DNA of 64,000 nucleotides from Oscillospiraceae bacterium (lineage in GTDB: Bacteria > Bacillota > Clostridia > UBA1212 > UBA1255). The notes under the pieces were generated by a model. It did no database searches and had not been told where the DNA came from. It saw nothing but the letters and a program-made list of their open reading frames with translations. Where the stretch lies: positions 65,385-129,384 of the forward strand of contig SVJD01000002.1 in NCBI GenBank assembly GCA_015069165.1. Direction: 5' to 3'. This document shows positions 23,121 to 37,391 of the stretch, piece after piece (the stretch's first letter is position 1; every line of letters begins with the position of its first letter). Both the position numbers and the translations under genes were made by a program.

Positions 23121-24187
23121 TAGATAAATTACAGGCAGCAGAATTTCGATACGAAGAGCTGACTCAAAAATTAACAGACCCGGAGGTTTTGAGTAATTCC
23201 GACGTCTACAGAAGAACCGCCACAGAGCATTCAGAATTAGAAGAGCTTGTGACGGTTTACAGAGCATACAAAGAAGCTGTAAAAGAACGTGACGAAGCAA
23301 AAGCTATGCTTTCTGAACAATTAGAAGACGAATTTCGCGAGCTTGTAAAAGAAGAGTTTCGCAGTAAAAACGAAGAAATTGCAGAGTTTGAAGAAAAACT
23401 TAAAATAATGCTTATCCCCAAAGACCCTAACGACAACAAAAACGTAATTGTTGAAATACGAAGCGGTACGGGAGGAGAAGAAGCAGCACTTTTCGGAGCG
23501 GTGCTTTTCCGAATGTATTCAAAATTTGCAGAGCGCATGGGCTGGCGTATAGACATCGTAGACTTTAACGAAACCGAGATAGGCGGTGTTAAAGAGTGTA
23601 CTTTCACGATTGTGGGCGCGGGCGCTTACAGTAAAATGAAATTCGAAAGCGGTACCCACAGAGTTCAGCGCGTACCTGCTACGGAATCAGGCGGCAGAAT
23701 TCACACTTCTGCGGCTACTGTTGCAGTTCTTCCTGAAGTGGAGGACATTGATGTAGAATTAAACTTAAGTGATGTTGAAATAGAAACTTGCAGAGCAGGC
23801 GGTGCGGGCGGTCAGCACGTAAATAAAACGGAATCTGCTATACGTTTGATTCATAAACCCACAGGAATAGTGGTTACTTGCCAAGATGAACGTTCGCAGC
23901 TTAAAAACAAAGAACGTGCATTTAAAGTGCTTCGTTCAAAGCTTTACGAGAAACAAAAAACGGAGCGCGATAATTCCGTAGCAGAAACGAGAAAAAATCA
24001 AGTCGGCTCAGGCGACCGCAGCGAAAAAATCAGAACGTACAATTATCCGCAAAACCGCGTGACAGACCACAGAATAAATCTTACATTGTATCAGTTGGAA
24101 GCTATTCTCGACGGAGACCTTACAGAAATAATCGAAGCCCTTATCACAAGTGAACGTGCGGAAAAACTTGCAAAAGGAAACGGATGA
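23117..24187 (+). CDS. prfA: Peptide chain release factor 1
   Basis: PAT tripeptide ([10 protein letters not shown]) and the GGQ motif ([13 protein letters not shown]). Confidence 0.95.
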
Positions 24188-24194
24188 CGTCAAA

Positions 24195-25259
24195 ATGAAC
24201 ACAGAAATAGTAAAAATCGACAGAAATAATATCGACAAAGAAAAAATTTCATATTGCGCAGAAGTAATAAAAAGAGGCGGACTCGTTTGTTTTCCGACGG
24301 AAACCGTTTACGGCCTTGGGGCAAGTGCGTTTAATGCAGAGGCAGTAAATAATGTTTATAAAGCAAAAGGCAGACCGGCAGATAATCCGCTTATTGTTCA
24401 TATTTCAAATTACGAAATGTTGGAACTCGTTACTGATTGTGAGGGGGAACAACGCAACGTATTAAATAAATTGGCAGATAAATTTTGGCCGGGACCGCTT
24501 ACAATGATTGCACACCGTGACGATGCAGTGCCTGCAAATGTTTCTTGCGGACTTGATACAGTAGGAATCAGATTTCCGTCACACCCGATTGCTCAAGCTT
24601 TAATTGAAGCTTCCGGAGTGCCGATTGCCGCGCCGAGCGCGAATTTGTCGGGAAAACCCAGCCCTACAAGAGCTTCTCATGTAATTGAGGACATGATGGG
24701 CAGAGTGGATATTATAATCGACGGAGGAAATTGTGACGTAGGAGTGGAATCCACTGTTTTTGATATTGCAGGAGAGCAAATGAGCGTATTAAGACCCGGA
24801 GCTGTTACTTTGGAGCAAATTTTAACTGTCGTAGAATCGGCAGACGAGCCGGATTGGATGAAATCACATGGGGATTCCGACGAAAAACCACGTTCGCCGG
24901 GACTTAAGTACAGACATTATGCGCCGAAAGCAACCGTGAAAATTTATGACGGAGAGCAAAATTTAAGAGTAAAACATATATTAAATGAAATAGAAAAAGC
25001 AAAGATGGGCGGGCTTAATTGCGGAGTTCTTACCACGGACGAGAATGTGAGATACTATGAAAATGCCGCAACCGTTTTATCTCTCGGTAAAGAAAGTGAC
25101 AGCTTACAGCAAGCTTCGAATCTTTTTCACTGTTTAAGGAGCTTCGATGAAATGAAAGTTGATTTTGTTTTTGCCGAAGCTGTGCCGTCGGGCGGAGCAG
25201 GAGATGCTGTTATGAACAGACTATACAGAGCCGCCGGAGGGAATATTATTCGGGTTTGA
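24195..25259 (+). CDS. tsaC: L-threonylcarbamoyladenylate synthase (Sua5/YwlC type TsaC)
   Basis: YrdC-domain motif GGLVCFPTETVYGLGA plus a C-terminal Sua5 domain. Start chosen as the first ATG after the prfA stop. Confidence 0.85.
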   Translation: MNTEIVKIDRNNIDKEKISYCAEVIKRGGLVCFPTETVYGLGASAFNAEAVNNVYKAKGRPADNPLIVHISNYEMLELVTDCEGEQRNVLNKLADKFWPGPLTMIAHRDDAVPANVSCGLDTVGIRFPSHPIAQALIEASGVPIAAPSANLSGKPSPTRASHVIEDMMGRVDIIIDGGNCDVGVESTVFDIAGEQMSVLRPGAVTLEQILTVVESADEPDWMKSHGDSDEKPRSPGLKYRHYAPKATVKIYDGEQNLRVKHILNEIEKAKMGGLNCGVLTTDENVRYYENAATVLSLGKESDSLQQASNLFHCLRSFDEMKVDFVFAEAVPSGGAGDAVMNRLYRAAGGNIIRV

Positions 25260-25397
25260 ATGTTTTGTCATATATGACTCTCGCTTTATGCAAATTATCT
25301 TTTAATATTATACATATAAAGGAAACATAAACGCTTGTTTTTTCTCTAAACTACAGTAGTGTAAAATATAAGAATGATTTTATACGGAGGTATTGAA

Positions 25398-26240
25398 ATG
25401 GAGAAAAAATTAACAAGAGAACACATTCAGAGTTTTTACACATGGCTGAAAACAGAAGAAAAAAGCAAAAACACAATAGAAAAGTATATTAGAGATGTAT
25501 CAGCTTTTATAAAATATTTAGGAAATGTTAGTGTTACAAAAGATAAAGTAATTGAATATAAAACAAAGTTGATTGATGAAGAATATGCCGTACGCAGTAT
25601 AAATTCTATGCTTGCATCATTAAATAGCTTATTTACCTTTCTTGGGTGGCATGATTTAAAAGTTAAATCAATAAAATTGCAAAATCAAATATATTGTTCG
25701 GAAGAAAAAGAACTTACAAAAGCCGAATATTTGCGTCTTGTAAATACAGCTAAACAAAATGGGAACAAGCGTCTGAATTTATTGATACAAACAATCTGCG
25801 CAACAGGAATACGTGTAAGTGAATTGCGATATATAACTCTTGAAGCGGTTAGAAGGGGGACAGCTGTTGTTTCTTTGAAAGGAAAAACTCGACCGGTTTT
25901 AATTATCTGTGAATTGCAAAAAAAGTTACTCCGTTACGCAACAGAACAACAAATTACGTCAGGTGCAATATTTATAACTCGAAACGGCAAACCAATGAGT
26001 CGTATTAATATTTGGAAAGAAATGAAAAACCTTTGCAAAGAAGCAGGCGTTAACCCGTGCAAAGTGTTTCCTCACAATCTAAGACATCTTTTTGCTCGTA
26101 CTTTTTATGGAATAGAAAAGGATATTGCAAAACTTGCGGATGTTCTGGGTCATAGCAGTATAAATACTACACGAATTTATATTGTTACAACCGGAGATGA
26201 ACACAGGAAAAAGTTGGAAAGTATGAGATTGATAATATGA
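25398..26240 (+). CDS. Small tyrosine site-specific recombinase (XerC/D-like), candidate invertase
   Basis: GGAGG RBS. SAM-like N-terminal domain. Catalytic signature ATGIRVSEL (Arg) ... HNLRHLFA (His-x-x-Arg) ... LGHSSINTTRIY (His, Tyr). Confidence 0.85.
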   Translation: MEKKLTREHIQSFYTWLKTEEKSKNTIEKYIRDVSAFIKYLGNVSVTKDKVIEYKTKLIDEEYAVRSINSMLASLNSLFTFLGWHDLKVKSIKLQNQIYCSEEKELTKAEYLRLVNTAKQNGNKRLNLLIQTICATGIRVSELRYITLEAVRRGTAVVSLKGKTRPVLIICELQKKLLRYATEQQITSGAIFITRNGKPMSRINIWKEMKNLCKEAGVNPCKVFPHNLRHLFARTFYGIEKDIAKLADVLGHSSINTTRIYIVTTGDEHRKKLESMRLII

Positions 26241-26265
26241 AAAAGAAAAATAAAACGATAAAAAC

Positions 26266-26287
26266 AACATAATCAATATTATGTTTC
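26266..26287. repeat. Left inverted repeat of the invertible element
   Basis: AACATAATCAATATTATGTTTC is the exact reverse complement of 26538..26559. Confidence 0.95.
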
Positions 26288-26370
26288 GGATATATATTCG
26301 AAAAAAACAAATATATCGTCTCGATGTTAAATTTTATCATAGAACAAAATAAAAATCAACAGATAAAAAA

Positions 26371-26399
26371 TTTAAAAATGAATTTTCGTAAATTATAAT
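26371..26399 (+). promoter_or_regulatory. Weaker promoter candidate on the + strand, sharing the palindromic -10
   Basis: TTTAAA (26371..26376), a 17-nt spacer, then TATAAT (26394..26399). Confidence 0.3.
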
Positions 26400-26420
26400 T
26401 TACATAAGTGAGCATGCCAA
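26392..26420 (-). promoter_or_regulatory. SigA-type promoter candidate inside the switch, currently pointing away from the surface operon
   Basis: The minus strand reads TTGGCA (26420..26415), a 17-nt spacer, then TATAAT (26397..26392). Confidence 0.45.
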
Positions 26421-26486
26421 TATAAACCTTATTATAGAGTATTTTGAGTACAAATATAACAAGGTTTATATTGTTATGCTTTTTTT
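26418..26486 (+). terminator. Hairpin plus T-run inside the switch (orientation-dependent terminator candidate)
   Basis: CAATATAAACCTT (26418..26430) pairs with AAGGTTTATATTG (26461..26473). The stem is extended by TTATA/TATAA after one mismatch. T7 at 26480..26486. Confidence 0.4.
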
Positions 26487-26537
26487 ACTGTTTTTTAGAG
26501 CGCTTTTTAACTGTGGTAAAACTTTTAAGTTTTATTT

Positions 26538-26559
26538 GAAACATAATATTGATTATGTT
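26538..26559. repeat. Right inverted repeat of the invertible element
   Basis: GAAACATAATATTGATTATGTT. With its flanks it reads GAAACATAA-TATTGA-TTATGTTTC, two 9-bp inverted arms around an asymmetric centre. Confidence 0.95.
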
Positions 26560-26597
26560 TCAAAGTGTCAAAAAATATTATACAAGGAGTGTGGATA

Positions 26598-29500
26598 ATG
26601 AAATCAAAAACAAAAAGGATTATTTCTTTATTGCTTGTGGTTATTTTGGTATGTAGTATTTTACCAATACAGACAGTTCAAGTTCAAGCGGCAGGCTTGA
26701 GTCTTCAGCAACTAAAGGACAAATTTCCACAAGATGCTTATTGGAACGGCGGTAACGTAGATAGTTATACGTGGACGCCATGTGCTTCGCATAGCAATTG
26801 TGATTATTATGGTGGGTGTAATTGTAATTCGTTTAGCAATGCGATTCAATGTCATGGCTTTGCTCTAAAATTGGGATATGATGCATTTGGCACAAACCCG
26901 AGAAATTGGTCACGAGCAGGAGCTCCATATAGTTATATTGACTCTTTAAAACCAGGCGATATTGTAACATCTGATTCTCCGTATCATACCTTTTTTGTTA
27001 TTGGTGTTACATCTTCTTCTGTAACTATAGGAGAGTGCAATTATGGTGGGAGATGCAGAATTAATTGGGGAAGAAGCATTAATAAAGCTACGATAGCTGG
27101 TTATTCTGGACTTGCAATCTATATTGCTCCTGCGACTCTCAATATAGATAATCATGTTCATTCATACACCTCAAGTGTAACCACGAATCCCACATGTACT
27201 TCTGCAGGCGTGCGTACATATAGGTGCTCTTGTGGTAGTAGCTACACTGAGAGTATTGCTGCGTTGGGTCACGATTATACCGGTGATAGATTGTATGAAA
27301 CTGCACACCCGCACCAAATTTCACAAAGGTGCGTCAGATATAGTTCTTGCGGTGGTTTTTATTGGACCGGAGAGAATTATTTTTTATCGGATTGTAGTAC
27401 TTGTTTGGCAGAAAATCCAAAACAAATACATAGTTCTCATAGTTCTGCATCACTGTCCTTAGGAGGTGCGGATTCACAAACTATATATTTTTGGTCAAGT
27501 GGCTATTATAATGGTAACTGTAGTTATCTTTGGGAAAGAAGTAATTCGAACATATTGCCCATTTGGGGAGATTGGACGGAAGATAATAAACTCCCGTTAA
27601 CTATAACAGCGAATTCTATAGGAACAACAGTGTTGACTGTATCTATAATAGATAGCGATACGGAAGCAGTTTTAAGCCGCAAGACGATAAATGTCACTGT
27701 GGGTGTATCTACTTCTTCGTTAAGTGTAAATACCTCAAACAGCGCGACAATATCTACTGCCGGAAAAATGAAGTATTATGAATACACTCCGTCAACAAGT
27801 GGTACATACGTTATTTATTCAACTGGTTCTGCGGATACAAAGGTGCATTTGTATAATGTAAGCGGAACAGAGTTGGATAGTAATGATGACGGCGGTGATA
27901 ACAGTAATTTTAGATTGGAGTACAATCTGACGGCCGGAACAAAATATATATTTGGAGTAAAATACTATAGTTCCTCAACAACGGGAACGATTCCGTTTAA
28001 GTTTGGCAATGTATACACCGTAAATTATAATGCTAATGGTGGAACCGGTGCTCCTTCTTCACAAAAAAAAGATTATGGCGCGAGTATTACATTGAGTAGT
28101 ACTTTACCAACAAGAAGTGGATATACATTTAAGGGCTGGGCTACAAGCAGTTCTGCGACAAGTGCAACATATCAGCCCGGTGACACCTATACAGCTAACT
28201 CCAGTACAACGCTTTATGCTGTTTGGAAAAAGGTGTTCTATGGAGATGTAAATCAAGACGGTGTGCTTGACAATAACGATATTCTGCGTATGAACAAGAT
28301 TCGTCTTGGCAATGTAGAGGCAACAAATTGGGAATTGTTCGCAGGAGATTTGGATGGTGATGGCACCATTACAATGGATGACATCGAATTGCTAAACGCA
28401 TTTATTCTGAGAAAAAGCACACAATTTCCGGTAGAACAGATGAAAAAAATGCTGATGATCAACACATACCCAGATAAAACGGATTATTGTATTGGAACAC
28501 AAATTAGCACAAACGGATTAAGCGTTATTTTATATTATGCAGAAACCTCCGAATGCTATTATGTGACAGAGTATTGTGATATCGTGCTTCCCTCAACAAG
28601 CAGCGCAGGCAAGAAGAATGTAGATATTTCTTTTGGAGGCTTAGAGACGCAGTATCAAATTACCGTTACATCGGAACACAGCTATACCTACAAGACCACC
28701 AAGACACCGACAACGTCTGCAACCGGTATATTGACGGGCACCTGCTCAAAATGCTCCGGTACGACTACCGTAACTTTGCCCAAATTGAATACTACCGACT
28801 ACGGCTACCAAGTCACTAAATCGGCAACCTGCACAGCCACCGGCACAGGGCGGTACACCTGGAAGACAACCACCTATGGTAGCTTCTACTTCGATATAAC
28901 GATTGCCAAGGCGGCACACAGTTGGAAAGCGGCAACCTGCACCAGTGCACAAACTTGCTCTGTTTGTGGCACGACCAGTGGTTCGGCGTTGGGGCACAGT
29001 TACAACTACAAGGCAACCAAAACGCCTACAACTTCTGCAACCGGCACACTGACGGGCACCTGCTCAAAATGCTCCGGTACGACTACCGCAACTTTGCCCA
29101 AGCTGAATACCACAGATTACAGTTATTCCGTTAGAACTGCTGCGACTTGCACCGGAGCAGGTAGTGGTCGCTATACTTGGAAGACAACAACATACGGTAG
29201 TTTCTACTTTGATGTTTCTATTTCTGCAACCGGACACAATTATTCCGGCGGCAAATGTACACGATGCGGGGCAAATGATCCGAATCATGTAATTGACCAA
29301 AATGCACCCATGATAATGGTAGATACTGTTAACGGAAAAGCCGGCGAAACGGTAAAAGTAACTGTCAGCATGAAAAACAACCCCGGTATTTGGGGTATGG
29401 ACTTGGTTGTTAACTATGACAAGACACAATTAACACTTGCAAGTGTTACAAACGGAACGGTTTTTTCTTCGTCAGAATGGACACAGGGTAATTTGTCTGG

Positions 29501-29909
29501 CGACAAATGTATTCTTTCTTACGAGGCAAGTGGTCTTGATAACATTACAACAAATGGTGTACTTGCAGCATTAGAATTTGCTGTTAATAAAAATGCAACA
29601 GTTGACAGTTTTGTAAATATTTCGCTTTCATACAATGCTGGTGACATTATTAATGTAAATTTTGATGATGTAAAAGTTGCCATTGTTCCGGGCGGAATTA
29701 ATATTGCAGATTTTGTCTATGGTGATTTGAACAGCGATGGATTGGTCAACAAGAAAGATTCCTTGTTGATGAAAATGTATCTTGCTGACAATACAACAAC
29801 CATTGATATGCAAGCTGCGGATGTGTATGTTGATGGAAACATAAATAAAAAAGATTCACTCTATCTGAAACAGTACTTAGCCGGATTAGATGTTGAATTA
29901 GGTGCTTAA
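26598..29909 (+). CDS. Secreted multidomain protein: CHAP-like papain-fold domain, Cys-rich modules, Ig-like domain, PPC, Listeria-Bacteroides repeat, dockerin, Ig-like domain, 2x106-aa repeat, cohesin, C-terminal dockerin
   Basis: AAGGAG RBS and signal peptide. QCHGF...YHTFFV...GECN (Cys-His-Glu-x-Asn). YTVNYNANGGTG...YTFKGW...LYAVWK. Dockerin Ca loops GDVNQDGVLDNND/GDLDGDGTITMDD and GDLNSDGLVNKKD/DVYVDGNINKKD. Cohesin-like GKAGETVKVTVSMKNNPGIWGMDLVVNYDK...VAIVPGGINI. Confidence 0.8.
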   Translation: MKSKTKRIISLLLVVILVCSILPIQTVQVQAAGLSLQQLKDKFPQDAYWNGGNVDSYTWTPCASHSNCDYYGGCNCNSFSNAIQCHGFALKLGYDAFGTNPRNWSRAGAPYSYIDSLKPGDIVTSDSPYHTFFVIGVTSSSVTIGECNYGGRCRINWGRSINKATIAGYSGLAIYIAPATLNIDNHVHSYTSSVTTNPTCTSAGVRTYRCSCGSSYTESIAALGHDYTGDRLYETAHPHQISQRCVRYSSCGGFYWTGENYFLSDCSTCLAENPKQIHSSHSSASLSLGGADSQTIYFWSSGYYNGNCSYLWERSNSNILPIWGDWTEDNKLPLTITANSIGTTVLTVSIIDSDTEAVLSRKTINVTVGVSTSSLSVNTSNSATISTAGKMKYYEYTPSTSGTYVIYSTGSADTKVHLYNVSGTELDSNDDGGDNSNFRLEYNLTAGTKYIFGVKYYSSSTTGTIPFKFGNVYTVNYNANGGTGAPSSQKKDYGASITLSSTLPTRSGYTFKGWATSSSATSATYQPGDTYTANSSTTLYAVWKKVFYGDVNQDGVLDNNDILRMNKIRLGNVEATNWELFAGDLDGDGTITMDDIELLNAFILRKSTQFPVEQMKKMLMINTYPDKTDYCIGTQISTNGLSVILYYAETSECYYVTEYCDIVLPSTSSAGKKNVDISFGGLETQYQITVTSEHSYTYKTTKTPTTSATGILTGTCSKCSGTTTVTLPKLNTTDYGYQVTKSATCTATGTGRYTWKTTTYGSFYFDITIAKAAHSWKAATCTSAQTCSVCGTTSGSALGHSYNYKATKTPTTSATGTLTGTCSKCSGTTTATLPKLNTTDYSYSVRTAATCTGAGSGRYTWKTTTYGSFYFDVSISATGHNYSGGKCTRCGANDPNHVIDQNAPMIMVDTVNGKAGETVKVTVSMKNNPGIWGMDLVVNYDKTQLTLASVTNGTVFSSSEWTQGNLSGDKCILSYEASGLDNITTNGVLAALEFAVNKNATVDSFVNISLSYNAGDIINVNFDDVKVAIVPGGINIADFVYGDLNSDGLVNKKDSLLMKMYLADNTTTIDMQAADVYVDGNINKKDSLYLKQYLAGLDVELGA
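28677..29290 (+). repeat. Tandem intragenic repeat (2 x 318 bp, a 106-aa Cys-rich module)
   Basis: Copies start at 28677 (HSYTYKTTKTPTTSATG...) and 28995 (HSYNYKATKTPTTSATG...). They share an identical 39-nt run (tgacgggcacctgctcaaaatgctccggtacgactaccg). Confidence 0.9.
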
Positions 29910-29924
29910 AGGAGGCAATGAAAA

Positions 29925-32171
29925 ATGAAAAAAAGGCTTTTAGCACTCATACTTTCTTTAACGATGATTTTTGCTATGAGTGCTGTCAATATGTCAGCAA
30001 CGGAAACAACAGAACACACAATTACGATTGAAAATGTTGAAGCTGAAAGCGGAGAAGATGTCGCAATCAAAGTTATGATTGAGAACAATCCGGGTATATG
30101 GGGTATGGATTTAAAAATTTCATACGATAAATCAGCATTAACTCTTACAAGTGTTGATAATGGTGATTTTTATCAAGCATCTGAATGGACAAAAGGTAAT
30201 TTGAACGCGGATGTTTATATTCTTTCTTATGAGGCGGGTGGTTTAGATAATATCACTACTAAATCCGGTACTTTAGCTATTCTTAATTTCAAAGTAAGCG
30301 ATACCGCTGTAGCTGGTGATTACGCAGTAACCGCTTCTTGTAATGATGGTGATATTATCAATGTAAGTTTTGAAAATGTTCCATTTACCATTACAGGAGG
30401 TGGAGTAACTGTTAAAGCAAAACCTGTAACTGTCACAGGCGTAACCATTGACGAAACTTTGTCTCTCAAAACTGGCGAAACAAAGACCCCGGGCTACACC
30501 GTAAACCCTGCAGAAGCTACAAACAAAGCCGTTTCGTTTAAGTCTGACAATACCGATGTTGCAACTGTAAACGAGACCACCGGTGAGGTAACCGGTATCA
30601 AGGGAGGTACTACTACCATTACAGTAACCACCGCAGACGGTAACTTTACCGATACCTGCATAGTAACTGTTGCGTGCTCTCACGCAAACAAGACCCCCGT
30701 TGCAGAAAAGTCTTCCGACTGTAAGAACAAGGGTTGGGATGCTTATGTGAAATGTGACGATTGCGGTCAGCTCTTCGCTGAAAACGGCACTACCGAGATT
30801 GCCGAAATTCCCTTTCGCCAGCTCTCTGACCAACACACCGGAGGAACCGCAACTTGTACTAAACAGGCTGTTTGTACCGTGTGTAGCCAGTCTTACGGTG
30901 CTTTGACTTCTCATGATTATACTGCTGAAACGAAGAAAGCGGAAGCATTGAAAACTGCCGGTAACTGCCGTGATTATGCTGTTTACTACTATTCATGCTC
31001 TGCTTGCGGCAAAGTGGAAGATAAAGACAGCCATACTTTCAACGGCGATAAGGTTGCAGATAATCATATCGGCGGAACCACTCTTGTAAATCAGGCTGAA
31101 GCAAATCACAAAACACAGACCAACGGTTATACCGGTGATGCTAAATGCCTCGGCTGTGGCGAAATCATTGACTATGGTGAGACGATTCCGGCGGGGGCAC
31201 ATACTCCTGCTGATATTTGGTCTACTGATGGTGAGTATCACTGGAAAGAGTGTAATGTTGTTGGCTGTGGTATTGTAATTAATAATTCAAAGATTTCTCA
31301 TAGCTCTACAGGAGCAAATGTTGCTACTTGTCAAAAAAGAGCTGTCTGTGATGTTTGTGGCGTTTCCTATGGAGAAGTGGCAGACCACGATTGGAATACA
31401 ACTGCTTGGGAAAAAGATTCTACAGGTCACTGGCACGAATGCAATACTGTTGGTTGTACAGAAAAGAATGCTTTTGAGGGACATACACCTGATCACCAAG
31501 GTAATGCTACTGAAGAGTATGCTATAAAATGTACTGTTTGTCAGTATGAAATTGAAGCTCAACTCGGTCATACCCATGTGTTTGACAAAGAAGTTGCAGA
31601 GGAACAGTATATTGCAAGTAAGGCAAACTGCACTGATGCTGCAAAATACTATAAGTCTTGCAAGTGCGGAGAAAAAGGTACAGAAACTTTTGACTTTGGT
31701 GAAAAACTCGGTCATATTGAAGGTACTGCATGGGAGAAAGATTCTACAGGTCACTGGCATAAGTGCTCTATAGCCGGCTGTGGTGTAATTATCGAAAGCA
31801 GCAAAGCATTGCACACTCCTGATCGTGAAGCGGCTACAGAGAAAGATCCGATTAAGTGTTCTGTTTGTGGCTATGTAATTGCTCCTGCTATAGGTCATTC
31901 TCACGATTATAGCGGCGAGTGGAAGTCTGATAAGGGAATGCATTGGAATGAATGTTCTTGTGGTGAGGAGGCTAACAAAGCAGCTCACAAAGACGATAAC
32001 AAGGATGGTAAGTGTGATGCTTGCGGATACAATGTAGGTATTTCTACAGTTCCGAGCAATCCTCAAACCAGTGACAGTGATATGTTTTCTCTTTGGGGCA
32101 TTTTGCTCTGTGTCAGTGCTTTGGGTGTAGTTGGAATAATTTTAATTGGCAAAAAGAAATCTTTTAGATAA
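29925..32171 (+). CDS. Cell-surface cohesin protein: signal peptide, cohesin, Big_2 Ig-like domain, long Cys/His-rich repeat region, C-terminal sorting-signal-like anchor
   Basis: GGAGG RBS 15 nt after the upstream stop. Cohesin-like GEDVAIKVMIENNPGIWGMDLKISYDK...FTITGGGVTV. Big_2-like VTGVTIDETLSLKTGETKTPGYTVNPAEATNKAVSFKSDNTDVATVN. C-terminus NPQTSDSD + hydrophobic helix + KKKSFR. Confidence 0.8.
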   Translation: MKKRLLALILSLTMIFAMSAVNMSATETTEHTITIENVEAESGEDVAIKVMIENNPGIWGMDLKISYDKSALTLTSVDNGDFYQASEWTKGNLNADVYILSYEAGGLDNITTKSGTLAILNFKVSDTAVAGDYAVTASCNDGDIINVSFENVPFTITGGGVTVKAKPVTVTGVTIDETLSLKTGETKTPGYTVNPAEATNKAVSFKSDNTDVATVNETTGEVTGIKGGTTTITVTTADGNFTDTCIVTVACSHANKTPVAEKSSDCKNKGWDAYVKCDDCGQLFAENGTTEIAEIPFRQLSDQHTGGTATCTKQAVCTVCSQSYGALTSHDYTAETKKAEALKTAGNCRDYAVYYYSCSACGKVEDKDSHTFNGDKVADNHIGGTTLVNQAEANHKTQTNGYTGDAKCLGCGEIIDYGETIPAGAHTPADIWSTDGEYHWKECNVVGCGIVINNSKISHSSTGANVATCQKRAVCDVCGVSYGEVADHDWNTTAWEKDSTGHWHECNTVGCTEKNAFEGHTPDHQGNATEEYAIKCTVCQYEIEAQLGHTHVFDKEVAEEQYIASKANCTDAAKYYKSCKCGEKGTETFDFGEKLGHIEGTAWEKDSTGHWHKCSIAGCGVIIESSKALHTPDREAATEKDPIKCSVCGYVIAPAIGHSHDYSGEWKSDKGMHWNECSCGEEANKAAHKDDNKDGKCDACGYNVGISTVPSNPQTSDSDMFSLWGILLCVSALGVVGIILIGKKKSFR

Positions 32172-32192
32172 TAAACAATACATTAAGTATTT

Positions 32193-32224
32193 GGTGGTGA
32201 CGTTTTTGTGTCACCACCTTTATT
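32193..32224 (+). terminator. Rho-independent terminator of the surface operon
   Basis: GGTGGTGAC-gtttttgt-GTCACCACC followed by TTTATT. Confidence 0.65.
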
Positions 32225-32257
32225 AAATAAGGAATGTTTCATGCAAGGTGAGTAAAT

Positions 32258-32794
32258 GTGAGCGGCGATAATATAGACAACGCAAAAACTACTGAAAATT
32301 TTCATCGGCTACACTCCTCTCGCGGAATATCTCGTCGCAGAGCAAGAGGTCAAGTACACAGGTATTCGTTAAATGAAAAAGATAGAATTCGTAGGGCGAT
32401 TAAGCGTAAAAAACAACGTATTATTCGTATGTGGTTTATCATTGGTTGCGTGATGGTGTTGCTTGTGGCGATTGTTGCTCTTATCTGCAAATATTGTGTG
32501 AGGGAACAGAAAAGGAATACAGAGCTTGCAGGAGTGTGGCATTACGACCAATACACGGAGTATGAATTTGATGGGAAGGGCAAAGGCTGTATGTGCCTTG
32601 ATGGAAACAATCACTTTGAATTTACCTACAAGACAGAGGGTACTGCTCTCTATCTTGATTTTATTTTGGATTATGTAACTGATTGTCAGTACAGTTACAA
32701 CATTGAGGGAGAAAAACTGACTCTTGTAGGCGGTGAAGGTACTGCGGAAGTTGGCAAGAAATATGAATTGACAAAAATTCTTTTAGATAAATAG
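32258..32794 (+). CDS. Hypothetical type-II membrane protein (basic N-terminus, one TM, small beta-rich ectodomain)
   Basis: GTG start after AAGGTGAG. TM helix MWFIIGCVMVLLVAIVALI. No recognisable catalytic motif. Confidence 0.5.
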   Translation: MSGDNIDNAKTTENFHRLHSSRGISRRRARGQVHRYSLNEKDRIRRAIKRKKQRIIRMWFIIGCVMVLLVAIVALICKYCVREQKRNTELAGVWHYDQYTEYEFDGKGKGCMCLDGNNHFEFTYKTEGTALYLDFILDYVTDCQYSYNIEGEKLTLVGGEGTAEVGKKYELTKILLDK

Positions 32795-32802
32795 TTTTTG
32801 AA

Positions 32803-33075
32803 TTGAATACAAATCAAAAAAACGGAGGTAATAACAACTTAGCAGTTACAACGAAAGATAAAGTTTTTTTGTTGAGCGTAGAGGAAGTTGAACAATATTT
32901 TAATACGCAAATTGCTCGACAATTTGATAGTTATAATTGGTGGTTGAGAACGCCGGGAAACCCAAAAAATACTGTTGCTTATGTAGATGATAGAGGAAAT
33001 ATCAATGAAGATGGCAGGAATGTTAAAGTTTTGACTGCTGTTCGCCCGGCGATGTGGATTGATTTGAATTCTTGA
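32803..33075 (+). pseudogene. C-terminal fragment of a DUF6273-type protein (probable gene remnant)
   Basis: FLLSVEEVEQYF...WWLRTPG...VRPAMWIDL matches only the last ~70 aa of the intact paralog at 36408..37391 (VYLPSADEFNKYF...WWLRETG...VRPIISV). Non-ATG start, no signal peptide and no N-terminal half. Confidence 0.55.
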
Positions 33076-33107
33076 TTTGTAATGAAGTATATCGAAAATC
33101 TGTGTGG

Positions 33108-33139
33108 GATACGCTTGCAATATTGCAGGCGTATCTTTT
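33108..33139 (+). terminator. Terminator-like hairpin
   Basis: GATACGC...TGCAATATTGCA...GCGTATC followed by TTTT. Confidence 0.5.
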
Positions 33140-33390
33140 CATATGAAGCTCTATTTTTGCATTCAGTGTTATTTGAAGAAATAACTGAATAAAATTTTGG
33201 TTACAGAAAAAATCTCTTGAAGGACAAAAACAATTCCATGAACAACTTAATCACTTTACTTATGCTGAAATTTATGATACACTTTTCGAGCAAAAACGAT
33301 ATGTAATATATTTTTCAAAATACATTTACAATATAACAAGGATTGTATAGTAGATAATTGTTTTTTACTTATGAAAGTGAGGGAGTAAAT

Positions 33391-34368
33391 ATGGACGGTA
33401 ATGATTTATCTGCAAAAAAAGCTTATGGCAGAATAGGCGTAGCATTGGCAGTAGTATGTATCTCATCTATTGTTATGCAGATTTTGGCCGGAATTATAGT
33501 TGGCGTCATAACGCAAAAAAGTAATTTGTTTGATGAAAACGGTTGGCTGAAATGGGTAGCGACATTTTTACCTGTTTATGCGTCGTTTATAATGGGAATT
33601 TTAATTATGAAAAAGATTCCGAAAGATGGATGTGAAAGCGTTAAATTAGGAACGAAGAATTTCTTTGTTATCATGCTTTGCTGTTTTCCTATTACGTACG
33701 GAGGCAATATAATTGGTACGCTTTTGTCGGAATTTTTGTCCGGCGGCAGTGCTGAGAATGGATTAAATGAATTTGCTTTTGATAACAACCCGCTAAAAAT
33801 AATTGTAATAGTGATTTTGGCACCGTTATTGGAAGAATTGTTTTTCAGAAAACAAATAATAGACAGATGCGCTCGTTATGGTGAGAAAACAGCAATTTTG
33901 TTTTCTGCGCTGGCTTTTGGTTTGTTTCATATGAATTTATTTCAATTTTTCTATGCTTTCGGTTTGGGGTTAGTTTTTGCGTATACATATATAAGAACTC
34001 GTAAGCTGCGTTATTCTCTAATTATGCATATGGTAATAAATTTTATGGGTTCGGTAATAGCTCCTGCTATTTTATCGTCACTTGATATGGAAACAATAGA
34101 TAAAATGTCAACAGGTACAGTCAGTGATGCGGAAATTCTTCAAGTATTACCGCAGATTTTAGGCCTTTTGTTATATGTTTTTTCTTTGCTCGGATTAAGT
34201 ATTGCAGGTCTTGTTGTGCTTATTGTAATGATACGAAAACTTGTATTTTTACCAAAAGAGCAAGAAATTGAAAAAGGTAAATGTTTTAAAACAGTATATT
34301 GCAATATAGGTGTAATTCTGTTTGTTTTATTTTGCGTTGCAATGTGTGTATTAGCTTTAATTATATAG
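33391..34368 (+). CDS. CPBP-family intramembrane glutamic endopeptidase (CAAX protease/Abi family)
   Basis: GAGGGAG RBS. Polytopic protein with the three family motifs: LLEELFFRK (EExxxR), FGLFH (FxxxH), HMVINF (HxxxN). Confidence 0.85.
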   Translation: MDGNDLSAKKAYGRIGVALAVVCISSIVMQILAGIIVGVITQKSNLFDENGWLKWVATFLPVYASFIMGILIMKKIPKDGCESVKLGTKNFFVIMLCCFPITYGGNIIGTLLSEFLSGGSAENGLNEFAFDNNPLKIIVIVILAPLLEELFFRKQIIDRCARYGEKTAILFSALAFGLFHMNLFQFFYAFGLGLVFAYTYIRTRKLRYSLIMHMVINFMGSVIAPAILSSLDMETIDKMSTGTVSDAEILQVLPQILGLLLYVFSLLGLSIAGLVVLIVMIRKLVFLPKEQEIEKGKCFKTVYCNIGVILFVLFCVAMCVLALII

Positions 34369-34382
34369 GAGGTAAAAAAACG

Positions 34383-34679
34383 ATGGAAGAAAATAATATT
34401 TTTCAAGAGCCAAAAGAAATAACAGTTGAGGAAGGTGGTAAAAAACCTTTAGATACTACAGCTTTAGTGCTGGGTATTGTGGCAATTGCCGCAGCATTGT
34501 TCATTCCGCTCATTTCGTATGCTTGCGGAATTATCGGTCTTATATTTTCAATTAAGCACCGCAAAGAAAAAAGAACAAAAGCTGCATTGATTCTCTGTAT
34601 AATCGGACTTATTTGTGGCCTTGCTTCCCATGTTTATTCCATGATTGTAATACTTGGAACATTAGAAACTATAATATAA
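34383..34679 (+). CDS. Small two-TM membrane protein (DUF4190-like)
   Basis: GGAGG RBS 8 nt upstream of the ATG at 34383. Two hydrophobic helices separated by KHRKEKRTK. Confidence 0.55.
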   Translation: MEENNIFQEPKEITVEEGGKKPLDTTALVLGIVAIAAALFIPLISYACGIIGLIFSIKHRKEKRTKAALILCIIGLICGLASHVYSMIVILGTLETII

Positions 34680-34695
34680 TAGTTCTAAAAAAAAG

Positions 34696-34725
34696 CGCCG
34701 GCAAGATTGCCGGCGTTCTTTTTTT
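34696..34725. terminator. Bidirectional Rho-independent terminator
   Basis: CGCCGGCA-agat-TGCCGGCG flanked by an A-run upstream and a T-run downstream. It lies between convergent genes. Confidence 0.8.
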
Positions 34726-34757
34726 CTATACAATTGTTTTTTGAAAGAAAAGGTGGT

Positions 34758-36236: not shown

Positions 36237-36407
36237 TGAAAGACCTCCTTGTTAAATAGTAACCCTGTAGTCGCTGCGGTTTACAAAATCAGTATATGAA
36301 CAGACTACAGATTTAATACTAAATTTTTTATTTTTTATTGACATCATATTTAATTGAAGGTATACTTCATAGGTGTATTATTGTGTTATCTATTGGGAGG
36401 CAAATTT

Positions 36408-37391
36408 ATGATACGTAGAAAAGTATTGCCTGTAATTTTGGTAGTTGTAATGGCTATGACTGCACTTTTGCTTACAGGATGTAATGAAACAACGCTCGGT
36501 ACATCAAACTGGACAACAAACGGCGGAGACCCTTCTTTAACAAAACAAGAAGAAGTTGCCGATGATAAACTTGTAGAGTTTGGTATGTATCCTCAGACAA
36601 AGGCTGCTGCAGACGTACAGAGCACAATTAAATCTAATGTTAAAATCGATCCCGAAACAGGCTTGTGGACAGAGTTCAATGATGAGAAAGCTTCTGCAAG
36701 ATACGATCTTGAAACAGGATATTTTGTATATCAGGCTAAAGTTGAAGGTGAAGCTCAAGCAGAGCAGTATTATATGATGTGTGGAGAGAACCTTTATCTC
36801 GTAGAACCCATCAAATGGATTGTTCTTGAAACATCAGGCAGTGAAAGCCTTCTTATTTCAAGCAAAATTTTAGATGGCGGCAGAAAGTATAACAACCTCT
36901 ACGGCGAGTGTACATGGGCAGAGTCTTCCATGCGTGATTGGCTTAATGGTACGGATGATTACGATATAAACAATGGAGCTAATTATAAAGAAGAACTCAA
37001 TTTCTTAAACAGAGCTTTCAATGAAACAGAAATTGCTGCATTAAAGAAAGTGTCTTTGTCTTGCAAAGATAACGATACATATAAAACAGACGGCGGAGAA
37101 GATACTCAGGATTTGGTTTATTTGCCTTCTGCAGACGAGTTCAATAAATATTTTACAAAGGAAAGCGGTCTTAACTCCATGGCATACGGCACAAATTATG
37201 CTGAAGGAAGAGGTCTTGCTACAGATAAAAACAAAGCCGGAATATGGTGGCTCAGAGAAACCGGCGCCAAAACATTTATGTTGGCTGTAGATCGTTCGGG
37301 AAATATCACTGAAGGCGGCTATGCTGTAAGCGATGTTTCAGCAGGTGTACGTCCCATAATCAGCGTATCAACATCGGCTCTCAAAAAATAA
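36408..37391 (+). CDS. DUF6273-domain lipoprotein
   Basis: GGGAGG RBS. Lipobox LLTGC. KWIVLE...SWAESSMRDWLNG...WWLRETG...VRPIISV. Confidence 0.65.
   Translation: MIRRKVLPVILVVVMAMTALLLTGCNETTLGTSNWTTNGGDPSLTKQEEVADDKLVEFGMYPQTKAAADVQSTIKSNVKIDPETGLWTEFNDEKASARYDLETGYFVYQAKVEGEAQAEQYYMMCGENLYLVEPIKWIVLETSGSESLLISSKILDGGRKYNNLYGECTWAESSMRDWLNGTDDYDINNGANYKEELNFLNRAFNETEIAALKKVSLSCKDNDTYKTDGGEDTQDLVYLPSADEFNKYFTKESGLNSMAYGTNYAEGRGLATDKNKAGIWWLRETGAKTFMLAVDRSGNITEGGYAVSDVSAGVRPIISVSTSALKK

Follow-up and report, generated by a model that had tools for sequence, protein, structure and literature searches.

A compact group of genes in an uncultured member of the Clostridia, located within 25260..34757 of the window (the whole 64-kb stretch of DNA which was analysed), is best explained, with moderate confidence, as a self-contained and switchable accessory cassette of gut Clostridia which would tether a CHAP-like lytic device to the cell surface by way of cohesin-dockerin connectors. 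At its core are two genes, gene 1 for a secreted effector and gene 2 for a cell-surface anchor. A preliminary description of this DNA had delimited the unit to this gene pair. The two genes stand; the functional unit appears to take in also a recombinase, a DNA switch and a conserved DUF5640 gene.

The proposed mechanism is as follows. The recombinase would flip a 250-bp segment between two 22-bp inverted sites. Inversion would turn a promoter into gene 1 (ON), and the orientation present in the window would be OFF. The gene 2 product would be exported and linked to the wall by a sortase through a [S/N]PQT[G/S] signal, its long Cys-rich stalk keeping the N-terminal cohesin distant from the cell. 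The secreted gene 1 product would then plug its symmetric C-terminal dockerin into the cohesin of gene 2. A cohesin of the same type precedes this dockerin in gene 1 and could accept further copies head to tail, as for Amy4 of Ruminococcus bromii. The N-terminal CHAP-like Cys/His hydrolase would be the payload, and the assembly would be lytic rather than polysaccharide-degrading.

The gene pair and its domains

The features of the gene pair are listed here (aa, amino acids).

26598..29909, + strand: gene 1, secreted effector, 1103 aa (open reading frame and Pfam scan)
26694..27167, + strand: CHAP-like cysteine hydrolase domain, gene 1 aa 33-190 (alignment, profile, structure model)
27726..28013, + strand: PPC-like or galactose-binding-like beta-sandwich, gene 1 aa 377-472 (sub-threshold PPC match)
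28014..28223, + strand: Flg_new (Listeria-Bacteroides) repeat, gene 1 aa 473-542 (60 bits)
28239..28409, + strand: dockerin 1, internal, asymmetric, both Ca loops canonical, gene 1 aa 548-604 (38.3 bits, profile positions 1-57 of 57)
29304..29696, + strand: cohesin 1, type I-like (Pfam PF00963 at gene 1 aa 908-1015, 55.6 bits)
29718..29879, + strand: dockerin 2, C-terminal, with internally duplicated NKKDSL segments, gene 1 aa 1041-1094 (52.8 bits, profile positions 1-56)
29925..32171, + strand: gene 2, cell-surface anchor, 748 aa (open reading frame and Pfam scan)
30018..30413, + strand: cohesin 2 (Pfam match at gene 2 aa 32-136, 48.8 bits)
30432..30665, + strand: Big_2 domain, gene 2 aa 170-247 (48.2 bits)
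32058..32168, + strand: sorting signal of gene 2 (NPQTS, hydrophobic segment, KKKSFR tail)

Gene 1 starts with ATG, and AGGAG is located 8 nt upstream. Gene 2 is co-directional and follows after 15 nt; its ribosome-binding site, AGGAGG, lies inside the gap. By inspection, signal peptides look typical at both N-termini. The first half of gene 1 consists of signal peptide, CHAP-like hydrolase, a Cys-rich and Ig-like region, the PPC-like module, Flg_new and dockerin 1, the second half of a Big_3-like module, two Cys-rich repeats, cohesin 1 and dockerin 2. The order in gene 2 is signal peptide, cohesin 2, Big_2, Cys-rich stalk and sorting signal. An identical gene 1 protein is present in 16 contigs. 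For gene 2 an identical protein is annotated as hypothetical in the NCBI entry of a Ruminococcaceae metagenome-assembled genome (MAG).

The Pfam gathering cut-offs are 24.1 bits for Cohesin, 22.9 for dockerin, 27 for Flg_new and 25.9 for PPC, and each dockerin was scanned singly against PF00404. Both cohesins and both dockerins score above the cut-offs of their profile hidden Markov models, as do Flg_new and Big_2. The dockerins are only 34% identical to each other. Four dockerin Ca loops are present, all in gene 1, and three of them are canonical (D/N at positions 1, 3, 5, 9, and 12). The motif NNPGIWGMDL is common to cohesins 1 and 2, which are 52% identical over 127 aa. Beyond these four loops and two cohesins none were found in the 64-kb window, and Pfam scans of genes 1 and 2 gave no match to glycoside hydrolase or carbohydrate-binding module (CBM) families. 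In all these respects the preliminary description was accurate: it had given the coordinates of the two open reading frames and their 15-nt gap, two dockerins and one cohesin in gene 1, an N-terminal cohesin with the shared core motif in gene 2, the Flg_new and Big_2 domains, and the lack of a carbohydrate-active module.

For the cohesin-dockerin tandem of gene 1 an AlphaFold2 model was obtained with a predicted local distance difference test score (pLDDT) of 89.7 and a predicted template modelling score of 0.70. The top PDB matches of the cohesin 1 model in Foldseek are type I cohesins (E about 1e-12, template modelling (TM) score 0.80-0.86, root-mean-square deviation about 2 Å), and 2vn5/2vn6 are among the structural matches. 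As modelled, cohesin 1 has the nine-stranded jelly-roll fold of solved cohesins.

The CHAP-like domain at the N-terminus of gene 1 is most likely the catalytic payload, i.e., a putative peptidoglycan hydrolase (amidase or endopeptidase). It is read as such because of its conserved Cys, His and (D/E)CN elements, its profile and structure matches to CHAP and NlpC/P60 proteins and the hydrolase heads of its relatives. The putative catalytic residues are Cys85, His130, Glu146, and Asn148. In an alignment of 22 homologues the Cys of QCxGF and the His do not vary, and the (D/E)CN motif is invariant or nearly so. Run against PDB sequences, the profile of this alignment retrieves the CHAP lysin Ly7917 (E 7.8e-4), an NlpC/P60 protein (0.037) and also the Gsp amidase; the His and EQN of Ly7917 are matched there to the His and ECN of the domain. 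The AlphaFold2 model of the domain has a pLDDT of 87, and its top Foldseek matches are all CHAP or NlpC/P60 with probabilities of 0.99-1.0. Relatives of gene 1 carry a recognised CHAP, NlpC/P60, M23 or amidase domain in the same head slot. The family has no Pfam model of its own, and a library of 1.84 billion proteins contains 3887 cluster representatives at E up to 0.001 and 496 at 1e-30. A Cys-rich insert precedes the putative catalytic Cys in the head.

The PPC-like module is a different matter. The preliminary description had called a PPC domain, and the window copy scores 12.7 bits with PF04151, below the cut-off. Among homologous segments 6 of 30 do match PF04151, the best at 9e-7, and other segments match PA14 and GBD families. 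A profile of the module gave no significant match among PDB sequences. It is at best a distant PPC relative, an assignment which is weakly supported.

The C-terminus of gene 2 reads NPQTS-DSDMFSLWGILLCVSALGVVGIILIG-KKKSFR, and motif, hydrophobic segment and basic tail are all present, in agreement with the anchoring signal proposed earlier. A [S/N/P]PxT[G/S/D] motif is found at the equivalent position in 104 of 120 homologues of gene 2 (70 SPQTG, 16 NPQTG), and the NCBI name of one homologue refers to a sortase B sorting domain. Most homologues keep Big_2, the Cys-rich stalk and the anchor under differing N-terminal heads; for this reason the stalk looks like a general display chassis.

The gene 1 and gene 2 stretches without family assignment consist of short Cys/His-rich repeats (27168..27440, 28668..29282, and 30666..32039), e.g., HSY..K.T..PT....G.LTG.C..C and GHWHEC..GC, which have no Pfam match. 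Such repeats make up the anchor stalk, and no other part is better conserved in distant homologues (about 70% identity). One gene 1 allele (L049, JGI 3300024270) has a product called as 817 aa only, with no cohesin listed, and may be truncated.

Several points weigh against the assembly as proposed. Binding, activity and expression in the cassette are predictions from sequence. The CHAP-like domain, which was incidental in the preliminary description and is most likely the payload here, is recognised by residues, profile and the ranking of Foldseek matches and not by Pfam: no match to CHAP (PF05257) or NLPC_P60 was obtained even at E up to 10, and the Foldseek TM scores of its model are just 0.3-0.4. 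In dockerin 2 the second Ca loop is non-canonical with a Tyr at position 3, and the linker between cohesin 1 and dockerin 2 has just a few residues. With the sortase B target model TIGR03063 gene 2 scores 13.6 bits and does not reach the cut-off of 18.15. Its sorting motif terminates in Ser, not Gly. No sortase gene is located within the 64-kb window. Finally, most relatives of gene 2 are devoid of a cohesin.

Recurrence of the cassette and types of connectors

The order recombinase, repeat-flanked segment, effector, anchor, DUF5640 is present in at least three other metagenomic loci (L058/L059, L060, and L062). In these the anchor gene begins 10-18 nt after the effector gene and has a sorting signal at its end. 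In a further locus, L011, effector and anchor are present as a pair. In all four loci the effector terminates in a dockerin, and the next gene starts with a cohesin. The effector heads vary:

L058/L059: MACPF and Big_3
L060: MACPF and C-type lectin
L062: NlpC/P60

An additional arrangement is seen in L061. Here a small serine recombinase is followed by four effectors, a M14 carboxypeptidase, M23 with PG_binding_1, M23, and a CHAP-like protein. A cohesin and a dockerin, always of one type, are present in each of the three complete ones; the contig breaks off within the CHAP-like gene. Upstream of the gene 1 relatives in L011 and L012 no switch was found, thus the switch is not universal.

In five of the five cassettes which have both, the cohesin of the effector is closest to the anchor cohesin of its own type. 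Identities are 41-51% within a type compared with 22-46% to the anchor cohesins of other types. This pattern holds despite recombinases which are 95% identical between L058 and L060 and DUF5640 proteins which are 84% identical. The C-terminal dockerins are internally duplicated and type-specific, and the type of the dockerin co-varies with that of the cohesins across cassettes. Cohesins and dockerin travel together as cassette-specific triads, of which four distinct types are seen. A matched set of dockerin, effector cohesin and anchor cohesin would produce just such a pattern. Two points go the other way. The similarity of effector and anchor cohesins could stem from duplication within a cassette and not from shared specificity, and the gene 1 relative in L012 is without an adjacent anchor.

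The internal dockerin is of a different type. It occurs in relatives without any cohesin (P0030, P0067, and P0097); therefore dockerin 1, if functional, needs an outside partner. Here an alternative must be considered in which the pair does not stand alone: cohesins encoded elsewhere would be the partners of the gene 1 dockerins, and both cohesins of the pair would recruit other dockerin proteins, all as part of a larger, genome-wide scaffoldin network. The different type of dockerin 1 and its presence in cohesin-less relatives speak for such a network, as does the fact that R. bromii cohesins are promiscuous across several dockerins (PMC4611034). On the other hand, the 64-kb window contains no other dockerin or cohesin, and the four types move as cassette-specific triads. 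On the evidence of this window and of these cassettes we consider a genome-wide network unlikely and prefer the self-contained cassette.

Downstream of gene 2 two further elements are located:

32193..32228, + strand: terminator-like hairpin after gene 2 (11-pair stem with 6 GC pairs, then TTTATT)
32258..32794, + strand: DUF5640 membrane protein gene (PF18692, 82.9 bits)

The DUF5640 protein (lipocalin-like) has an N-terminal membrane helix. Its gene likewise follows the anchor gene in L058, L060, and L062 with 35-65% identity to the window copy, i.e., it is kept in all four full cassettes irrespective of the effector head. A role in effector-specific immunity is disfavoured by this conservation. 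Searches with PHROGs and PADLOC returned nothing informative for effector, anchor or DUF5640.

Precedents and possible role

The closest precedent of the cassette is the Amy4/Sca2 pair of R. bromii. In Amy4 a cohesin is followed by a C-terminal dockerin, and the cohesin recognises the dockerin of its own protein (Ze et al., 2015, PMC4611034). The Amy4 dockerin is also bound by Sca2, which combines a cohesin with a sortase signal; the amylases are reported to be constitutively produced (PMC4611034). The parallel is close: a secreted enzyme (Amy4, alias Sca1) ending in cohesin-dockerin and a separate single-cohesin protein with a sortase signal. The differences are equally clear. The payload in the cassette is a CHAP-like hydrolase instead of a GH13 amylase. 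Both genes are adjacent in one operon, and the anchor cohesin tops a long Cys-rich stalk. The extra internal dockerin, the predicted invertible switch and the DUF5640 gene have no counterpart in Amy4/Sca2. Taken together, the recurrence of effector-anchor pairs, the matching of cohesin types in all five cassettes and the Amy4/Sca2 analogy support the wiring suggested in the preliminary description, in which the anchor would capture a dockerin of gene 1.

With cellulosomes the cassette shares connectors. The type I-like cohesin fold is that of cellulosomal scaffoldins (ScaE and ScaC of R. flavefaciens, type I of Clostridium thermocellum), the internally duplicated dockerin 2 resembles dual-binding-mode type I dockerins, and anchoring by a sortase signal, predicted here, is known from ScaE of R. 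flavefaciens. Unlike cellulosomes, genes 1 and 2 contain no glycoside hydrolase, CBM or multi-cohesin scaffoldin, and the sorting motif is [S/N]PQT[G/S] and not LPXTG.

Cohesin-dockerin assemblies are mostly seen as machines which digest plant fibre and, lately, starch and mucin. Here the connectors occur in compact mobile operons with envelope-attacking payload domains, an own matched anchor and a DNA switch. The MACPF heads in related cassettes hint at a surface weapon rather than at fibre digestion. Bacteroidales MACPF proteins (BSAPs) kill competing strains. The sister cassettes L058 and L060 resemble BSAPs in their MACPF heads; BSAPs, however, are freely secreted without a cohesin-dockerin tether, and the effector of the window has no MACPF domain. 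No paper combining dockerin, cohesin and MACPF was found in the literature searched.

Dockerin-bearing cell-wall hydrolases are reported from ruminococcal cellulosomes (Vermassen et al., 2019, PMC6403190, citing Morais, 2016, and Bensoussan, 2017). In the same review a 'lyticome', a multi-enzyme complex dedicated to bacterial lysis, has been speculated upon (PMC6403190); in the literature searched the word is used in this review only. The cassette resembles the lyticome idea in that cell-wall hydrolases are coupled to cohesin-dockerin assemblies. It differs from the ruminococcal lytic enzymes, which are passengers of cellulosomes, by dedicated operons, a cognate anchor, the lack of carbohydrate-active enzymes, MACPF alternatives and a DNA switch.

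One may go a step further and suppose that the cassette belongs to an as yet undescribed family of lytic systems of gut Clostridia, self-contained, phase-variable and built from cohesins and dockerins. Type-matched cohesin-dockerin pairs would attach chains of peptidoglycan hydrolases (CHAP-like, NlpC/P60, M23, M14) or MACPF pore-formers to a wall-anchored stalk, for contact killing or digestion of neighbouring cells, and a portable module of recombinase and inverton would be ON in a subset of the population. This generalisation is tentative, and we would sooner doubt than assert it. If true, the lyticome, so far a speculation in a review, would have a concrete genetic basis, and abundant uncultured gut Firmicutes would have a possible system of contact-dependent antagonism. 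Several orthogonal cohesin-dockerin pairs would then be available as parts for protein engineering.

A nutritional role would make the cassette a peptidoglycan-degrading counterpart of the cellulosome, digesting bacterial debris as food. Starch and mucin cohesin-dockerin systems do serve nutrition, and the string of four effectors in L061 resembles a multi-enzyme degradative set. But the MACPF heads of the sister cassettes suit an attack on membranes better than feeding, genes for uptake or catabolism of muropeptides are not linked in the cassette, and phase variation is more typical of exposed or costly surface structures. Food acquisition is, in our estimate, improbable, if not negligibly so.

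A housekeeping role is judged quite unlikely. With the same wiring, the CHAP-like enzyme would be an autolysin for remodelling or separation of the cell's own wall or would bring about cell-cell aggregation, the connectors holding it at the surface. CHAP, NlpC/P60 and M23 enzymes are classic autolysins (PMC6403190), and wall-binding SH3_3 or PG_binding_1 modules are present in many homologues. Yet the cassette is an accessory island missing from the closest species and is predicted to be phase-variable, both unusual for autolysins. MACPF pore-forming heads occupy the equivalent slot in sister cassettes, and the long stalk places the enzyme away from the producer's wall.

The probable invertible switch and its genomic setting

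The elements upstream of gene 1 are:

25398..26240, + strand: tyrosine recombinase, 280 aa, putative invertase (Phage_integrase 90.7 bits, N-terminal SAM-like domain)
26266..26287, + strand: left inverted repeat AACATAATCAATATTATGTTTC, core ACATAAT-N4-ATTATGT
26288..26537, no strand: putative invertible segment of 250 bp between the two repeats
26331..26359, - strand: second promoter-like site, TTGATT-17-TGnTAAAAT, inside the segment
26392..26420, - strand: promoter-like site TTGGCA-17-TATAAT (11/12), directed away from gene 1
26410..26488, + strand: terminator-like hairpin with U7, facing gene 1 in the window orientation only
26538..26559, - strand: right inverted repeat, perfect 22-nt reverse complement of the left repeat

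Judged by the NCBIfam equivalogs the enzyme is a XerD-like tyrosine recombinase, and not XerC or XerD proper: it scores 125 bits with XerD (cut-off 329.6) and 108 with XerC (cut-off 335). The left repeat starts 26 nt past its stop codon, and the right repeat ends 38 nt before the start of gene 1. Only two copies of the 22-nt repeat exist in the window; two matches were obtained in none of 100 shuffles. Within each repeat the arms of the core form a small palindrome around an asymmetric centre, a layout to be expected of a tyrosine recombinase site. A phage or plasmid origin of the recombinase was rejected, the best plasmid or phage matches being below 60% identity.

The hairpin folds with -28 kcal/mol (z = -5.9), and its U-run is on the plus strand only. 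After inversion both promoter-like sites would face gene 1 over a leader of about 160 nt without terminator. Because in the window the promoter is directed away from gene 1 and the terminator hairpin faces it, this orientation is probably OFF. The ON/OFF assignment is tentative since in this AT-rich segment promoter-like matches are no commoner than in shuffles; promoter scans of the sister switches in L041, L058, and L062 had no clear outcome.

At a sister locus the inversion is directly visible. Four assemblies from different samples (L041-L044) contain an 81%-identical recombinase with identical flanks and repeats. Between L041/L043 and L042/L044 the 224-bp inter-repeat segment is exactly reverse-complemented. 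Clearly, this module inverts. The adjacent tyrosine recombinase, the perfect 22-bp repeats and both orientations at the sister locus argue for the phase-variable control which the preliminary description had supposed for the gene pair. All 20 contigs of the window locus, from 15 samples, share one orientation, so that switching is a prediction there. The predicted inverted junctions of the window switch are AAAACGATAAAAACAACATAATCAATATTATGTTTCAAATAAAACTTAAAAG and TTTCGAATATATATCCGAAACATAATATTGATTATGTTTCAAAGTGTCAAAAAA, and the left (ON) junction had 0 matches in a scan of metagenome contigs. A scan with the 22-nt repeat gave just one unrelated chance match within a coding region, in a collection which apparently lacks this organism.

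The uniform orientation would also be found if the switch were disused, i.e., if the cassette were locked, either silent or constitutively read through, with the repeats as a relic; the K48* nonsense mutation in the recombinase of one sample would agree with this. Such a relic is hardly to be expected, though: the two 22-nt repeats match perfectly, all other samples have an intact recombinase, assemblers output the majority orientation only, the 81%-identical module does invert, and neither cargo gene is damaged or varies between samples.

The mutated recombinase is found in L004 (ENA ERZ27248436). An A-to-T exchange at position 142 of the gene generates the stop, and the switch is oriented as in the other samples. 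A naturally locked variant would explain this, as would an assembly error.

Invertible promoters with an adjacent tyrosine recombinase are fimS of E. coli (FimB/FimE), cwpV of Clostridioides difficile (RecV) and the capsule promoters of Bacteroides. The window switch is similar to these invertons in its short inverted repeats around a segment of 200-300 bp between recombinase and surface-protein genes, and as in cwpV the terminator forms in one orientation only. Unlike the known invertons, the module moves with varied cargo (TIR/TPR, SLH, LRR/lectin, cohesin-dockerin cassettes). A paper linking dockerins with invertons was not found in the searchable literature, nor was a published description of the recombinase family and the core site ACATAAT-N4-ATTATGT.

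The module is widespread. More than 8000 homologues of the recombinase were retrieved, hundreds of them at 77-81% identity and all of these 280-281 aa long. In every homologue examined a pair of inverted repeats follows the recombinase. All fetched loci of this site type contain exactly two copies of the core site, and an integron- or shufflon-like multi-site system was rejected on this ground. This simple, conserved core site is also present in cultured Monoglobus pectinilyticus (L064), beside a 51%-identical recombinase and upstream of a hypothetical gene.

Cargo seems to be exchanged at the boundary of the switch. In L047 (Logan SRR27361825) Sua5, recombinase and switch correspond to 24023..26565 of the window at 96% nt identity, the homology stops 6 nt past the right repeat, and a different cargo gene is located there. 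Its product combines LRR_5 (BspA-type) with a C-type lectin and is called at 1355 aa or more; the contig stops before the end of the gene.

As a side observation, the module (25398..26559 in the window; L041-L046, L058, L060, L062, L063, and L064) is a widespread portable unit with very different cargo. At L041 these are TPR/TIR-domain proteins beside ToxN/AbiEi genes, at L045 small open reading frames, and in cultured Pusillibacter faecalis, where the repeats differ, a 1500-aa SLH protein. Many close homologues of the recombinase are located on contigs of just 1-2 kb, which would fit assemblies breaking at switches or at adjacent variable cargo.

A scan of a genome collection with gene 1 returned no relatives, and SpoIVA was used to place the organism. 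Identities of 84-90% group the host with 'Candidatus Egerieisoma' and with MAGs of uncultured Clostridia, and MAGs of Oscillospiraceae type also belong to its nearest relatives. In the closest species (L014, L025) Sua5 and SpoIVA are separated by about 635 bp, compared with 9.5 kb in the window (25260..34757). Other relatives have unrelated genes in between (sugar kinases, ABC transporter). Since this interval is short or differently filled in relatives, the cassette is taken to be an accessory island, inserted at a position which varies between genomes.

The rest of the window consists of housekeeping genes. An open reading frame of 90 aa at 32803..33075 matches the C-terminal part of DUF6273 only and looks like a truncated gene. 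It was considered as a duplication scar of the island, an idea which was rejected since its identity to the full DUF6273 gene at 36354..37391 is just 28%.

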